From the NCBI GenBank assembly GCA_023701365.1, contig JAMPXD010000006.1, positions 1 through 32,000 of the forward strand: 32,000 nt of DNA, written 5' to 3'. A program made the position numbers and the translations under genes. This document shows, piece by piece, positions 3,973-21,678 of the stretch (position 1 is its first letter; the number at the start of each line of letters is the position of its first letter). A model generated the notes under the pieces. That model did not search any database and was not told the DNA's origin. It was given only the letters and a program-made list of their open reading frames with translations. The DNA comes from Geobacteraceae bacterium. Lineage in GTDB: Bacteria > Desulfobacterota > Desulfuromonadia > Geobacterales > Geobacteraceae.

Positions 3973-4190
3973 TTTACGAATAGCTCATTGGCAATTGCGT
4001 AACATGCTGTTATTTATAATATTAATGATATAATATTGTCTTTTTTCAGATGAGCTCAAAAAATATGCGGCGATATTTCGTCGGCTGCCGCGACCGTCGA
4101 ACCATTCGGGCCGACATGTTCAAGCGATAACGGGCGGGATTTTCACGGAAATACTAGGGAAGAGCTTTCCGGAACCGGCGTCGGGAGATA

Positions 4191-4223
4191 GACGATATAT
4201 CGTCGCACTGACGATATATCGTC
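4191..4223. promoter_or_regulatory. Two identical 14-bp perfect palindromes (GACGATATATCGTC) spaced by 5 bp; candidate dimer-binding operator or enhancer (UAS)
   Basis: GACGATATATCGTC at 4191-4204 and again at 4210-4223, each its own reverse complement. They lie about 220-250 bp upstream of the sigma54 promoter and about 175 bp upstream of the small plus-strand ORF. Confidence 0.5.
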
Positions 4224-4398
4224 TCTCCGAGGAACATCTCACGGGTCAGCCCCGCCGGGGGCCTTGAGCCACGGCGGTTTTTCTTGACACTGGGGGTGGA
4301 AAAAAGTACTTTTCGTTAACGGATCTTCAGGAGAGGACACATGGTAATTGCATTCTTCAGCGGTAGAAAACGGGACCGAAGGGGAAGCGGAATTAAGT

Positions 4399-4548
4399 AT
4401 GTCCCCGGAATTCCTGCCCAAAACGGCGTTGCGTGAGCAACTGAAAGCCGCCGGGGGGCGCTGGAATCCGGAGGAACGTGTCTGGCGGGTCTGTTTTGGT
4501 GCGATTCGGGGTGACACGACACTGGTGGAACGGATCGTGAGGGAGTAG
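4399..4548 (+). CDS. Small hypothetical protein with a DUF5710-like motif (possible mobile-element remnant)
   Basis: 49 aa from the ATG at 4399; the ORF track extends it to a TTG at 4348. It contains LKAAGGRWNPEERVWRV, which resembles the K-x-x-G-A-R-W-D/N-x-x-x-K/R-x-W-y-V motif I associate with DUF5710 domains of plasmid/ICE primase-type proteins. GGAAGCGGA is a possible SD. Confidence 0.4.
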   Translation: MSPEFLPKTALREQLKAAGGRWNPEERVWRVCFGAIRGDTTLVERIVRE

Positions 4549-4589: not shown

Positions 4590-4746
4590 GTCAGGTATAC
4601 GGAGAATAAGTCACCTATACCGGTTACCAGCTCTTACCAAGGAAAAGCGGGATAAAGCCACGTATATAGGTGACTGTCAGGTTCCTTATATACGGCACTG
4701 TTTACGTATATAGGTGACAAGTCACTTATATACGGATACCGGTGAC
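4590..4746. repeat. Iteron/operator-like array: about 7 copies of GTCAC(C/T)TATATACGG in both orientations
   Basis: Forward copies at 4590-4602, 4610-4623, 4676-4695 (with an internal insertion) and 4721-4735. Inverted copies at 4661-4674 and 4705-4718, plus a partial copy at 4736-4746. An exact 15-nt repeat (acgtatataggtgac) occurs at 4660-4674 and 4704-4718. Copies 4705-4718 and 4721-4735 form a 14-bp-arm palindrome with one mismatch, 38 nt upstream of the next ATG. Confidence 0.6.
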
Positions 4747-4773
4747 TAACGAGTTGTGCAAGGAAGTTTAAAA

Positions 4774-5565
4774 ATGACGCTACTAATAAACCAGATACAT
4801 GTTGATGCTGAGAAAAACGATCACTTTTGGATAGCGGCGGCAGACGAATGGCTATCAAATTCGAAGGGGTTTCACTCAATAAAAAGGAAAATATTTCCGT
4901 TCAAGAGACTTAACTGCTGCATTTCATACTTTGGACTTGCTGCATACAAGATAAATGGAAAGGATATTTATATTGGTGATTTAATACAAAAATTTATTGC
5001 CAATGACTCTCTTTCGCAAACCATAAGAGATTTTTCGTGCAATATTAAAACCCACCTAAACTCGAAGGTTCCTAACACAGTGCTCTCCCAGGAAGGTTCT
5101 GGTTTTCATATTTGTGGTTTTGAATCGAATGGTCTTCCAGTTCTTTATCATTTTTCCAATATTAGCGGGATGAATGACATTTTCTATGGAACTAATTCAA
5201 GCACATATAACGATGTAACTGAGGACTTTATTGGAAGAGACGCTAATAATTTTGGCTATGATCCGAACAATTTAACTTTTTCTAAAAGTGGCACCTTCGA
5301 ATATAGAAATGGCGATTTGTCTATACATGTCAATCTCTCGAAAGATTTGTTGAGTACTTTGAAAAAAATCCCTGAATACGGGAACTATGTCATTTTAAAA
5401 GGGCCTTATCACTATGCCAAAATGATTGATATGCTTTATAAAATCATTATCAAGATTCAGAAAGAGTGGGCGAAGAAACAACGTATCGGCGGGAAAAATA
5501 CTATTTTGATAATAAAGAAAACTGGCATCGAAGTGAAGAAACGAGGGAAATGGAGCCGTCTTTAG
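4774..5565 (+). CDS. Hypothetical protein, AT-rich; possible divergent proteasome-beta/HslV-like N-terminal-nucleophile (Ntn) hydrolase
   Basis: 263 aa from the ATG at 4774, with AAGGAAG SD 6 nt upstream (the track start at 4756 is less likely). A roughly 790-nt open frame in visibly AT-rich DNA is unlikely by chance. Motif order resembles proteasome beta subunits: M-T at the N-terminus, FWIAAAD, KIFPF, ISYFGLAA, GSGFHICGFESNGLPVLYHFSNISG, and IGGKNTILIIKKTGIEV near the C-terminus. Confidence 0.75.
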   Translation: MTLLINQIHVDAEKNDHFWIAAADEWLSNSKGFHSIKRKIFPFKRLNCCISYFGLAAYKINGKDIYIGDLIQKFIANDSLSQTIRDFSCNIKTHLNSKVPNTVLSQEGSGFHICGFESNGLPVLYHFSNISGMNDIFYGTNSSTYNDVTEDFIGRDANNFGYDPNNLTFSKSGTFEYRNGDLSIHVNLSKDLLSTLKKIPEYGNYVILKGPYHYAKMIDMLYKIIIKIQKEWAKKQRIGGKNTILIIKKTGIEVKKRGKWSRL

Positions 5566-5732
5566 CCCAACCCGCGGCGGCACTCGGTCTCCGCTTCGCT
5601 CCGCCGGTGCGCCTTGTGACGTTCGACAGAAGACAGAAAAATGAAGACATATGACCAGCGGTGAGGGAAAAAGGCAAAGGAACTGTTCAGCGGGAGAAAG
5701 TTTCCAGAGTAGAGGCGGTATTGCAGGAACCG

Positions 5733-6071
5733 CTAATGGCCGTGTGCTACGCATTCCGACAGCAGGTCGATGATCCAGGCGTTGATGCTTTTGCCATGCG
5801 CGGCAGCTTGAGCGGCAAGCCGTTCATGCAAGGCAGGGGGCACTCGCAAGTTGAATTTTCCAGAGAAATGCTTGCGAGGCTCAACTCCCTCCTCGGCGCA
5901 CATTTCCAGGAAAGCTTTCAGCGAAATCTCACCCTCTTTCCGAAGTTCATCAACCGTGGTAGCATAGAAATCCGCTCCACCGTTAATTCCGACGAACTCA
6001 CCTCGGAACATGTTGATCTCCGGATCAAAGGAAATGACTGCCTGGTAACCGTTAATTTCCATATTGTTCAT
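5733..6071 (-). CDS. hicB: Type II antitoxin, HicB family (C-terminal ribbon-helix-helix)
   Basis: 112 aa. The HicB-like N-terminal fold pattern (YQAVISFDPEINMFRGEFVGINGGADFYATTVDEL) is followed by a RHH-like tail (FNLRVPPALHERLAAQAAAHGKSINAWIIDLL). It overlaps hicA by 4 nt (ATGA). Confidence 0.85.
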   Translation of the reverse strand: MNNMEINGYQAVISFDPEINMFRGEFVGINGGADFYATTVDELRKEGEISLKAFLEMCAEEGVEPRKHFSGKFNLRVPPALHERLAAQAAAHGKSINAWIIDLLSECVAHGH

Positions 6072-6322
6072 GGTTTCACCCCATTATCTTCAAGCCACTT
6101 GCGGATGGAGGTCACTGCCCCTTTATCGGTATCTGGCGATGGATGTGGGCGATGAAATACCCGTCGATCACCAAAAAGCCGAACGCCGACGCGGGACCCC
6201 TCCCGCTCGGTGGTCTCTGCCCCAAGCTCCCGAAAGAGAGCCACGATATCCGGCCATTGAATATTGCCGGGGACAGGATGGGCAAAGATCGATTCAAGTG
6301 TTTTATGATGCTTTCGTTTCAC
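6068..6322 (-). CDS. hicA: Type II toxin, HicA family (mRNA interferase)
   Basis: 84 aa with a GTG start at 6322 and an in-frame TAA 9 nt upstream. Pattern KTLESIF...W.DI..L...LG....EG.GSRV......FHRPHP...DKGAV..IRK.L as in the longer HicA subgroup. Toxin-first order with a 4-nt overlap onto hicB. Confidence 0.8.
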   Translation of the reverse strand: MKRKHHKTLESIFAHPVPGNIQWPDIVALFRELGAETTEREGSRVGVRLFGDRRVFHRPHPSPDTDKGAVTSIRKWLEDNGVKP

Positions 6323-6357: not shown

Positions 6358-6700
6358 CATAAAAACTGTCAAACTACTCGCGACAGACGGTCGGCTTCGC
6401 CGCCGCTGCGCTCTCCCCAGTTGGCGTGAAAGGGGGGTTTCTGGGGTGGGGTTTCTGGGGTCGGACCAAGCTAACGGGCTGTAATTATAGAATTAACTTG
6501 CATTTTAAGCCTCCTTTTTCGCCTTAAAGCCACGTTTTTGATGGTAAAAAGGAGCCTTTAAGAGTTTCGGGGCAAATGAAGTTACCGACCAAATAGTTGG
6601 ACAACCACCGGGCGATAATGCCGCCCGAACGGGTCAACTGCTGGCTCGTTGGCGTGAAAGTGAATGAGAAAATAAATCTGTACATTTTGAGGTATTTCAA

Positions 6701-19858: not shown

Positions 19859-21421
19859 ATGGAACAGAGGACTCTAAAATCACTCCTTAAACCCTCGGCA
19901 TACCCGGAAGCCACCACCTCAGTCCGCCTCGTTCAAACGCACGTCTCGTTCATCTTCATCACCGACAATTTCGTCTACAAAATCAAGAAGCCGGTCGATT
20001 TCGAATTCCTGAACTTTACCACCCTCGACCGGCGCCGCTTTTACTGTAATGAAGAGGTCCGCCTCAACCGCCGCCTCTGCCCGGATATCTATCTGGGTGT
20101 TGTGGAGGTGCGGGAATCCTCCGGCGGCGCAATGATCGACGCGGAAGGGCCGGTGATCGACTACGCGGTGAAGATGAAAAGGCTCCCCGAGGAGCGGATG
20201 CTCGACCGGCTGCTCCGCGCAGGCGAGGTGTCCGACGGCGACATCAGGCGGATTGCCGGCACCATCGCCGAGTTCCACCTGAACGCCGGCCGGAGTGAGG
20301 AGATCGACAGCTACGGCAGAGTGGAGAGGATCAGGTGGAACTGGGACGAAAATTTCCAGCAGATCGCCGGTTTCATCTCCGTCACCATCGGCAACCGGGA
20401 TCTGCTGACCATCAGGGAGTGGGTGGAAAAGTTCCTGGCGGAACAGGAAGGGCTCTTCGCCAGCCGGGTCTCCCAAGGGTTCATCAGGGAGTGCGACGGC
20501 GACATCCATACGGAAAACATCTGCCTTGCCGACCAGGTCTGGGTCTTCGACTGCATCGAGTTCAACAACCGCTTCCGTTACTCCGACACCGCAGCCGACA
20601 TCGCCTTTCTCCTGATGGATTTCGATTTCCATGGCCGGCCCGACCTTTCCGGGGTGTTTCTGAGCGAATACGTCGCCATCACCGGGGACCGGGATATCTG
20701 CCGGCTCCTCGATTTCTACAAGACTTACCGGGCCGTTATCAGGGGGAAGGTGGAGAGTTTCCGGCTGCGCGACCCGCACATACCGGAAAACGAGAAGCAG
20801 GCCGCCAGGGAGAGGGCGATCCGCTATTTCCGCCTCGCCCGGGGCTATGTCATCCGCCAGCGGCTCCCCCCCACCCTGATCATCACCTGCGGCCCGATGG
20901 GGAGCGGCAAAAGCACCGTAGCAGCCGGCCTCTCCCTTGAGCTGGGGATCGAGGCGGTCTCGTCCGACCGGGTGCGCAAGGAACTCGCAGCCGTCCCGGA
21001 ATATTCCCATGATTTCTCGGCATACGGCACAGGGATCTACAGTGCGGCGTTCACCGAGGCAACCTACGGCGAGTTGCTGGCCAGAGCGGAGCAAGCCCTG
21101 GCAGGGGGGCGGAGCGTCATCATCGATGCCACCTTCCGCAGGAGGGGAGAGCGGGACCGCTTCCGCGCCCTCGCCGGCAAATTTTCCGCCCCTTTCCGGA
21201 TCATCCGGACGACCGCCCCGGAAGATCTCCTGAGAAAGCGGCTCGAACAGCGGCTGACGAGCCCTCGCGAGGCCTCGGACGGCAGATGGGAGCTGTTCCG
21301 GAAGCAACAGGAGGAGTTTGAGCCGTTGGGACAGGATGAGCCGAATCAGATTTCTCTCGACACTTCCCTTCCGCTGCATGATACTATCAACACGATTCTG
21401 CATGCCCTGGGGATACTATGA
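19859..21421 (+). CDS. Fusion protein: kinase-fold (aminoglycoside-phosphotransferase-like) domain plus P-loop kinase (AAA_33-like) domain
   Basis: 520 aa. The N-terminal roughly 330 aa carry catalytic-loop-like DGDIHTENI and FDCIEFN. The C-terminal part has Walker A GPMGSGKST. AAAGGA SD. The stop overlaps the next gene (ATGA). Confidence 0.85.
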   Translation: MEQRTLKSLLKPSAYPEATTSVRLVQTHVSFIFITDNFVYKIKKPVDFEFLNFTTLDRRRFYCNEEVRLNRRLCPDIYLGVVEVRESSGGAMIDAEGPVIDYAVKMKRLPEERMLDRLLRAGEVSDGDIRRIAGTIAEFHLNAGRSEEIDSYGRVERIRWNWDENFQQIAGFISVTIGNRDLLTIREWVEKFLAEQEGLFASRVSQGFIRECDGDIHTENICLADQVWVFDCIEFNNRFRYSDTAADIAFLLMDFDFHGRPDLSGVFLSEYVAITGDRDICRLLDFYKTYRAVIRGKVESFRLRDPHIPENEKQAARERAIRYFRLARGYVIRQRLPPTLIITCGPMGSGKSTVAAGLSLELGIEAVSSDRVRKELAAVPEYSHDFSAYGTGIYSAAFTEATYGELLARAEQALAGGRSVIIDATFRRRGERDRFRALAGKFSAPFRIIRTTAPEDLLRKRLEQRLTSPREASDGRWELFRKQQEEFEPLGQDEPNQISLDTSLPLHDTINTILHALGIL

Positions 21422-21678
21422 AAAATGAGCTGAAACGGACATTGTTGAAGCGCTTCCATCTTACGGAAATATGGGTGATCTTCTTCATCCTCGGGATAAT
21501 CATGATGAATTATCCTTTTGTTCACATATTTTACAAACCACGCCAGATCTTCGGGATACCGGCCTTCTTTCTCTATCTCTACCTCGGCTGGCTGATCTCC
21601 ATTTGCGTAATCTACCTCTTCGTCAAAGCCACTGACCTGAATGAGGGAAAAAACAAAGACAAAGGGGAGCATCGCTGA
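21418..21678 (+). CDS. Small 2-TM membrane protein, translationally coupled on both sides
   Basis: 86 aa with two hydrophobic helices (IWVIFFILGIIMMNYPFVHIF; IPAFFLYLYLGWLISICVIYLFV). ATGA overlap with the upstream gene, and TGATG overlap (1 nt) with the downstream SSS-domain gene. Confidence 0.7.
   Translation: MKNELKRTLLKRFHLTEIWVIFFILGIIMMNYPFVHIFYKPRQIFGIPAFFLYLYLGWLISICVIYLFVKATDLNEGKNKDKGEHR

Follow-up and report, generated by a model that had tools for sequence, protein, structure and literature searches.

In a 32,000-nucleotide stretch of DNA from a Geobacteraceae bacterium (GenBank assembly GCA_023701365.1, contig JAMPXD010000006.1, positions 1 to 32,000 of the forward strand; hereafter the window), we analyzed the gene at 4774–5565 on the plus strand, which encodes a protein of 263 amino acids. 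The best explanation of the data as a whole, which we hold with good confidence, is that this protein is a proteasome-like (MEROPS T1-type) N-terminal nucleophile (Ntn) hydrolase that stands alone and that its gene is a single-gene mobile accessory. The gene was characterized by its open reading frame (ORF), its family and residue conservation, AlphaFold2 (AF2) modeling, Foldseek structure searches and hhalign profile comparison. A first-pass annotation, made from the sequence alone, had read the motif order of the protein as that of a proteasome-type Ntn hydrolase, and this assignment is supported by the structure matches, by hhalign with its controls and by the conservation of residues.

Predicted fold and relationship to proteasome subunits

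The structure of the protein was predicted from two alignments of different depth. The AF2 model from nine sequences reached a pLDDT of 86.7 and a pTM of 0.87, and the model from 63 sequences reached a pLDDT of 96.5 and a pTM of 0.93, with the order of the secondary-structure elements unchanged. The N-terminal part comprises strand S1 (residues 3–10), S2 (18–24), a hairpin (26–36), S3 (40–43) and S4 (48–54); the middle part an extra hairpin (57–66), helices H1 (67–77) and H2 (84–98), S5 (109–116) and S6 (122–128); and the C-terminal part an insertion (129–172) with a helix at 152–160, S8 (173–180), H3 (183–202), H4 (211–232) and three strands (242–248, 251–256 and 259–262). The predicted structure shows the four-layer alpha-beta-beta-alpha Ntn sandwich with proteasome topology. 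The TLLINQI segment and the C-terminal strands that the first-pass annotation had pointed out coincide with S1 and with the last three strands, and every motif on its list was found in the ORF and is conserved beyond chance.

Foldseek searches of the PDB at E ≤ 1e-3 returned 59 matches for the first model and 125 for the second. Both models retrieved 20S proteasome subunits as essentially all top matches, which filled the first 34 ranks in the 59-match run and the whole top 50 in the 125-match run (best E 2.1e-6, prob 1.00, TM by target 0.48–0.62). Anbu (5nyg, 2.6e-4) and TANGO2 (9bwa, 5.5e-4) came after the 20S subunits in the 59-match run. In the viral structure library BFVD, the matches included a Gordonia phage protein (6e-7) and a siphovirus protein named 'proteasome beta type-2 subunit' (1.1e-6).

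The relationship was also examined by profile comparison. The family was aligned by hhalign with 23 archaeal beta subunits, all of them database sequences; the seed for the archaeal search was a Thermoplasma beta sequence that agrees with a database entry at 98%. The comparison gave a score of 34.4 (P = E = 2.4e-4) over 96 columns, versus scores of at most 12.4 for the reversed and at most 20.2 for 30 column-shuffled controls. It placed AAD(24) on ATE(17), K39 of the KKIF/KKLF motif on Lys33, and SGFHICGF on the LLVGG strand. The HMMER profile of the family matched the T. acidophilum beta chain 3c91_H non-significantly (E = 1.8) in the same register, pairing AADRRIT with ATERRVT and KKLF with KKLF. 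D24 and K39 are invariant in the alignment of 63 sequences (A2) and are aligned with Asp/Glu17 and Lys33 by both hhalign and HMMER. G54, also invariant, ends the strand at 48–54 as Gly47 ends S4 of beta subunits, and the two alignments place it 2–3 residues off Gly47. On the basis of these models and alignments, the proteasome-like Ntn fold and the family membership of the protein are predicted with high confidence.

Conservation and distribution of the family

The label 'orphan', given to the protein at first, does not hold. A search of a 5.8-billion-protein collection yielded eight relatives at 35–93% identity, and a profile of these relatives matched 443 clusters (50% identity) at E ≤ 1e-3, and 206 at E ≤ 1e-10, in a library of 1.84 billion representatives. 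Nearly all of the matched proteins were about 250 amino acids long and aligned from residue 1. A second profile search returned 323 proteins, all annotated as 'hypothetical' and none with a Pfam domain. The members from protein searches belonged to Ignavibacteria, Acidobacteriota, Blastocatellia and one metagenome-assembled genome of Beckwithbacteria (candidate phyla radiation), and the genome matches to Bacteroidales, Saprospiraceae, Desulfobaccales, Syntrophorhabdaceae, Chloroflexota and Isosphaeraceae. The genome and metagenome loci were gathered with a narrower alignment (A3) and are biased toward the subclade of the window protein. At most of the loci compared, the GC content of the family gene was lower than that of its surroundings. 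Judged from these sequences, the protein belongs to a family that has so far no annotation and whose single-domain members, of about 250 aa, are spread over many bacterial phyla, and its patchy distribution, hosts in unrelated phyla and gene GC below that of the surroundings suggest spread by horizontal gene transfer.

The sequences in A2 are mostly 22–40% identical to the window protein, and D24, K39, G54, N129 and G180 are invariant among them. Among 91 full-length members, the conserved residues were T2 (81 members), D24 (87), K39 (89), G54 (90), H112 (85), N129 (90), N179 (86) and G180 (90); G110, G115 and P122 were further conserved positions. T2, D24, K39 and G54 are accordingly 89–100% conserved in the family, and in the window gene they are encoded on the plus strand at 4777–4779, 4843–4845, 4888–4890 and 4933–4935, respectively, as read from the ORF. 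The Thr, Asp and Lys positions, whose loss in homologs had been named as grounds for giving up the assignment, are kept across the family. Based on this conservation, the protein is likely to be an active Thr1 hydrolase that uses Lys39 and Asp24.

The Met-Thr start noted in the first-pass annotation is present in the window ORF, which begins with ATG-ACG. The ORF finder had also listed a GTG farther upstream, at 4756, and this was dropped as the start because Met-Thr is kept at the start throughout the family. One full-length member starts with Met-Ser. In all members with 18–81 apparent extra N-terminal residues, an M, V or L start codon immediately precedes the Thr; these extensions are therefore taken as over-called starts and not as propeptides. 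On this evidence, the family has no propeptide.

Comparison with known proteasome homologs

The family shares with the 20S beta subunit (PF00227, MEROPS T1A) the Ntn fold (predicted here), the N-terminal Thr, Asp/Glu17 and Lys33 in register, and the AxDRRxT and KKLF motifs. At low confidence, a 'GG..P...' S5–S6 hairpin is also common to both, and the C-terminal 'IG.PID' strand resembles 'SGGMID'. In contrast to the beta subunit, the family has no propeptide, lies below the Pfam threshold, has neither an alpha-subunit nor an ATPase partner, and carries about 60 extra residues in the hairpin 57–66, the insertion 129–172 and the additional C-terminal strands. HslV (MEROPS T1B) is likewise a bacterial member of the Thr1 peptidase family and a single gene product, but it has about 175 amino acids and is encoded with and dependent on HslU, whereas the 263-aa protein has no HslU-like neighbor. 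Anbu is among the structural matches, though weaker than 20S beta subunits, and the family lacks the ATP-grasp, alpha-E and transglutaminase operon of Anbu.

In 2021, Fuchs, Alva and Lupas added to the proteasome, HslV, Anbu, BPH and connectase at least 22 subfamilies of proteasome homologs, among them PHD, PMI-1 to PMI-6, GPH, DAH and WPH (PMC8665760). These subfamilies share Thr1/Ser1, Asp17, Lys33 and Gly47, have neither a propeptide nor an AAA+ partner, and show low pairwise similarity to known proteasome-like proteins; the function of the partner-less homologs is not known, and the authors found their genomic context uninformative (PMC8665760). The family analyzed here resembles them as a divergent prokaryotic, propeptide-less family of the Thr1/Asp17/Lys33/Gly47 type with no AAA+ partner, and because it fits this description it represents a kind of proteasome homolog that is already known. 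A stand-alone proteasome homolog had been called unusual in the first-pass annotation, a view that the 22 partner-less subfamilies already catalogued do not bear out. In contrast to PMI-2 to PMI-6, PHI and connectase, the family lacks the insertions described for them in S3/S4, the pore loop and H3/H4. An attempt to assign the family to a Fuchs subfamily by accession placed it in none: the four NCBI members MBM4160390.1, NMB57091.1, HLG15164.1 and MEK6301492.1, compared by accession, are not among the published representatives. About 3 of 120 listed members have 'nr' as their source, a number below that of every catalogued subfamily as of 2020. A search of a literature library found no link between proteasome homologs and integrons or defense, and the cassette and defense-island context described below appears to be new for proteasome homologs.

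The gene as a probable single-gene mobile unit

The DNA around the gene had been described as foreign-looking, in agreement with its composition: the GC content is 35.7% in the gene versus 59–61% in the remaining window. The low-GC patch spans about 3.9 to 7.8 kb of the window and, with the HicAB module that it holds, is flanked by housekeeping genes. The boundaries of the mobile unit were defined by comparison with L034, a locus from another sample whose protein is 93% identical to the window protein. Positions 4753–5630 of the window align with 27–903 of L034 at 91% nucleotide identity, and both flanks are unrelated. The left homology edge lies exactly at GTTGTGC (4753–4759, plus strand; GTTGAGC in L034), a GTTRRRY-like core with one mismatch located 14 nt before the ATG. 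The right edge lies just past GACG|TT of the R' core GTTCGAC, which has one mismatch; the R' core of L034, GTTAGGC, is perfect. This edge is formed by an attC-like site of 63 nt (5565–5627, plus strand), recognized by its core motifs and by R-box pairing under RNA parameters, in which R'' (GCCCAAC) overlaps the stop codon and an internal L-box stem, GGCGGCAC/GTGCGCC, has one extra base. RYYYAAC and GTTRRRY cores are found directly after the ORF, and the same unit occurs in two contexts with G|TT junctions. A ribosome-binding site, AAGGAAG (4760–4766, plus strand), lies 8 nt upstream of the start and inside the cassette, and its L034 counterpart is AAGGATA. The unit resembles integron cassettes in being a compact single ORF with its own ribosome-binding site, in its core motifs at both ends, in its occurrence as one unit in two contexts and in its toxin-antitoxin (TA) neighbor, which is itself cassette-like.

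Similar sites were found next to relatives of the gene. A stop-anchored search gave sites of the same type downstream of the L002 and L033 family genes, and a start-anchored search gave attC-like R' cores ending 14–22 nt before the family start in L003, L015, L028, L033 and L035. At a background attC-like density of 0.21 per kb per strand, five anchored sites were observed upstream versus about 0.5 expected, and four downstream versus about 0.2. In a strict census (cores with at most two mismatches, R boxes paired under DNA parameters, z ≤ −3), about 250 kb of loci held seven sites, of which five abut the family gene (L002, L003, L015 and both sides in L033); a sixth is part of the same L033 array. 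The hairpins that abut these relatives had z values of −4.3 (L002), −8.4 and −4.1 (L033), −3.4 (L015) and −2.1 (L003). L003 and L035 have the left junction GTTAGTT in common, and their right junction lies inside the attC and not at R'. In L033, three strong attC-like hairpins (649–765, 1678–1749 and 2498–2577) stand within 3.1 kb, and the family gene is split into overlapping ORFs (1764–2216 and 2110–2493), as would result from a frameshift in a pseudogene or from an error in sequencing.

From these results we conclude that at least four other genomes carry the family gene as a bona fide integron-type cassette. That it is a single-gene mobile unit, and an integron cassette in some genomes, is very likely; that the window copy itself is or was an integron cassette is only slightly favored. 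The window copy, with its cassette junction signatures, is possibly now fixed or decayed. The idea that all family loci are integron arrays was rejected: an unanchored scan gave no excess over shuffles in L006, L013, L015 and L016, and most loci had no strong sites. Carriage by phages or plasmids was also rejected: searches of 50,697 phage and 72,556 plasmid records by tblastn gave no match, and no relative was found in IMG/VR either.

Partners and genomic neighborhood

We compared the neighborhoods of the window gene and of about 24 independent loci. All-versus-all BLAST revealed no neighbor conserved across them, and neither HslU, Anbu-type ATP-grasp, transglutaminase or alpha-E genes nor an AAA+ unfoldase were present in the window or the compared loci. 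The first-pass annotation had stated that the gene stands alone and had asked what a survey of homologs would show; the absence of HslU, ATP-grasp and transglutaminase neighbors extends from the window to the loci of the relatives. The sigma54 activator at 7803–9800 is a PAS/GAF/HTH transcription factor, not an unfoldase. Genes of about 300 aa upstream of the family gene in L012, L015 and L016 were considered as a common partner and discarded, being mutually unrelated. A GTPase association was also discarded: an RsgA-like gene is near the family gene in the window and L011, and we regard this link as coincidence because the L011 rsgA has host GC and the weakly similar protein of L021 and L026 is SelB. 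The RsgA-type ribosome-biogenesis GTPase gene of the window (6701–7783) is full-length (PF03193, E 1e-48) with 43% GC in a genome of about 60% GC, and may be a second copy acquired by horizontal transfer.

The TA module reported next to the gene was identified as hicB (5733–6071, minus strand; PF05534 HicB, E 1.8e-23) and hicA (6068–6322, minus strand; PF07927 HicA, E 2.1e-10), both also recognized by PHROGs. The pair lies in the low-GC patch of the gene, directly past the attC-like site. HicAB is also near the homolog in L012 but is not conserved across the loci, and it is context and not a functional partner. A weak attC-like element with three core mismatches at 6368–6426 could close a reverse-oriented HicAB cassette.

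The neighborhoods are variable regions in which conflict and mobile genes are plentiful. At the Pfam-annotated loci, the neighbors included GmrSD_N with or without HNH (two loci), WYL/WCX, RelA_SpoT, PIN_12, ThsB_TIR with DUF4231, PycTM with AGS_C, DUF4145 (two genes in L015), HicAB (window and L012), PIN_3 and Unstab_antitox, a group II intron reverse transcriptase and a DDE transposase. Unannotated loci held type IIG and type I restriction-modification enzymes, AbiEi, MADS components, PDC candidates and HicB-like antitoxins. At L013 (22–11211), L015 (384–15613), L016 (3280–8801) and L006 (3236–11321), the family gene lies within long same-strand runs of small ORFs, mostly of unknown function, which include ThsB_TIR, Pycsar-like PycTM with AGS_C, GmrSD and DUF4145. 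These runs resemble cassette arrays and show no excess of attC over shuffles, except for one strong site in L015.

Upstream of the window gene, the dense repeat array described in the first-pass annotation consists of four 15-bp repeats, GTCACYTATATACGG, arranged as two inverted pairs at 4660–4735, a count reached by none of 100 shuffles. Degenerate copies of GTCACYTATATACGG stand near 4610 and 4738. The array is located between the stop of a 66-aa ORF (4348–4548) and the cassette edge at 4753, and because it is absent upstream of the L034 copy, we place it outside the mobile unit; its inclusion in the unit was rejected on the same 93% identical relative. It was also considered as an attC of about 210 nt belonging to the 66-aa ORF, or as an attI-like site, and neither reading was supported, given its branched fold and the lack of an integrase. 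The array looks like an operator array or a piece of a long branched hairpin. The 66-aa ORF had no match in Pfam, PADLOC or PHROGs, and a possible operator stands upstream of it at 4187–4227, where the palindrome GACGATATATCGTC, whose arms are 94% complementary, occurs twice in tandem.

Two further features were observed elsewhere in the window. A perfect tandem duplication of GGGGTTTCTGGGGT (2 × 14 nt) lies in the hicA–rsgA intergenic region at 6434–6461. Another small gene of foreign composition is the 86-aa ORF at 21418–21678, which has 44% GC and is situated between an AAA_33 kinase-like gene of 61% GC and a gene for a SpoIIE/GAF phosphatase.

Proposed mechanism and alternative readings

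Methionine aminopeptidase accepts Thr at P1'. From the predicted fold, the family, the conserved residues, the absence of partners and the cassette boundaries, we infer a mechanism in which this aminopeptidase would take off Met1 and expose Thr2 as the N-terminal nucleophile. In this scheme, the parts played in proteasome beta subunits by Lys33 and Asp17 would fall to Lys39 and Asp24, and the invariant Gly54 at the end of S4 would probably contribute to the oxyanion hole. The enzyme would most likely cleave, and might possibly transfer, a peptide or amide bond; it would need no dedicated partner and would move as a single-gene unit. Its function is probably accessory and conditionally useful, possibly anti-phage, rather than housekeeping proteolysis, because the gene is often found among defense, toxin-antitoxin and mobile genes.

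Several observations weigh against this explanation. The TM-scores to proteasome subunits are moderate (0.45–0.62, rmsd 6–8 Å), because the protein exceeds a beta subunit by about 60 residues, in the hairpin 57–66 and the insertion 129–172. The hhalign probability is just 44%, and the alignments disagree by about 3 residues in matching Gly54 to Gly47. For the network of Ser129, Asp166 and Ser169, which orients Thr1, no equivalents are assignable from the alignments; candidates for it are N179-G180-D181 before H3 and 'IGG' 238–240 before S9 (from a low-confidence extended alignment), of which 'IGG' is not conserved across the family. The window protein was recognized at significance by no sequence-profile library searched, with nothing significant in Pfam, NCBIfam, PADLOC, PHROGs or, by phmmer and profile, the PDB. 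For PF00227, the profile on which the first-pass annotation had proposed to check its assignment, the window protein gave no match at E ≤ 10. PF00227 was the commonest sub-threshold Pfam match among the members (2 of 63, best E 0.006), and we take the miss as a sensitivity limit and not as exclusion, since the Fuchs subfamilies also have low pairwise similarity. As to the cassette, the attC-like sites of the window and L034 are thermodynamically ordinary (z = +0.8 and +0.2 versus shuffles, DNA parameters), and the R boxes of the window site are unpaired in the minimum-energy fold under these parameters. In contrast to integron cassettes, the 32-kb window shows a single convincing site, with only the weak element at 6368–6426 besides it, and neither IntI nor another tyrosine recombinase was found among its scanned proteins; most family loci have no detectable attC. 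Housekeeping genes (SelB and RNase E/G) are also among the neighbors at unannotated loci, the association with defense islands is qualitative and made without a matched control, and a search of PADLOC-DB 2.0 matched no family at E ≤ 1.

The absent PF00227 match and the low TM-scores would also suit a modeling artefact, or a protein without catalysis that serves as a scaffold in the manner of proteasome alpha subunits or PAC2. We consider this highly improbable: the nucleophile, acid, base and glycine positions are conserved at the levels given above while overall identity is 22–40%, two alignment depths gave one fold with a pLDDT up to 96.5, and the sequence-only hhalign link beats its controls. 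Among readings with an active enzyme, Thr1 chemistry could instead serve a connectase-like, sequence-specific transpeptidase or ligase, or an amidohydrolase acting on a small-molecule, cell-wall or lipid amide. Connectase is a monomeric proteasome homolog that acts as a ligase (PMC7980362; PMC8665760), the family has invariant residues of its own that proteasomes lack (H112, N129, N179-G180-D181 and R155-D156), and an insertion of 44 residues between S6 and S8 could give its active site a different shape. However, the protein has no connectase-type two-helix insertion between S3 and S4, with just 15 residues from K39 to G54, and its consensus AADRRIT is close to ATERRVT, the substrate-strand-binding segment of beta subunits. 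This likeness favors a peptide substrate. We regard a non-protease role as distinctly improbable. A role in general stress or quality control, as for HslV, BPH or Anbu, with a peptidase that forms a ring without an ATPase, degrades unfolded proteins and merely hitch-hikes in variable regions, is somewhat less improbable, though still unlikely. The closest structural matches are indeed the ring-forming 20S beta subunits and Anbu, and partner-less homologs may act on unstructured proteins according to Fuchs et al. (PMC8665760). The patchy distribution suggestive of horizontal transfer, foreign GC, cassette status and frequent isolation of the gene are nevertheless ill-suited to housekeeping, and the insertions 57–66 and 129–172 could hinder ring contacts.

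The reading of a single-gene effector against phages or other mobile genetic elements (MGEs) refines, and does not contradict, the explanation of a stand-alone, mobile proteasome-like hydrolase. Integron cassettes of unknown function have been shown to encode phage defense (BRiCs; Kieffer et al., 10.1101/2024.07.02.601719; PMC12614218), and the Thr protease, restrained by assembly or by access to its substrate, may have spread as such a cassette. Upon infection, it might cleave a phage or host protein and so cause abortive infection or inactivate a phage protein directly. This is a possible reading, and the foremost among the alternatives, though a tentative one. All eight loci with Pfam-annotated neighbors have defense, TA or mobile genes within 8 kb, further defense-type genes stand at unannotated loci, the gene has cassette status at several loci, and many of the phage-defense cassettes confirmed by experiment are single-gene and many also occur outside integrons (10.1101/2024.07.02.601719; PMC12614218). 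Set against this are the empty PADLOC-DB search and the literature search noted above, a neighbor association that carries no enrichment statistic against a matched background, the many non-defense functions that integron cassettes and variable islands also bear, and the build of the protein, a single domain of 250 aa with neither an evident sensor domain nor a partner. A role in conflict with phages or MGEs is conceivable, at slightly longer odds than the effector reading, and it is more doubtful still that a self-contained proteasome-type Thr protease serves as an immune or conflict effector spread by integrons among environmental bacteria.

If this were true, it would be the first link of the proteasome fold to prokaryotic defense against phages and MGEs, and the first functional context for partner-less proteasome homologs. 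If the defense reading fails, there would still be a new proteasome-like subfamily with a 44-residue insertion and residues of its own (H112, N129 and N179-G180-D181). With its 443 clusters at 50% identity, the family merits a model, since Pfam, NCBIfam and PADLOC all fail to detect it. The finding is of moderate interest, chiefly because the family supplies the genomic context so far missing for partner-less homologs, that of a single-gene unit beside defense and TA genes, and this cassette and island context makes a function directly testable for the first time.

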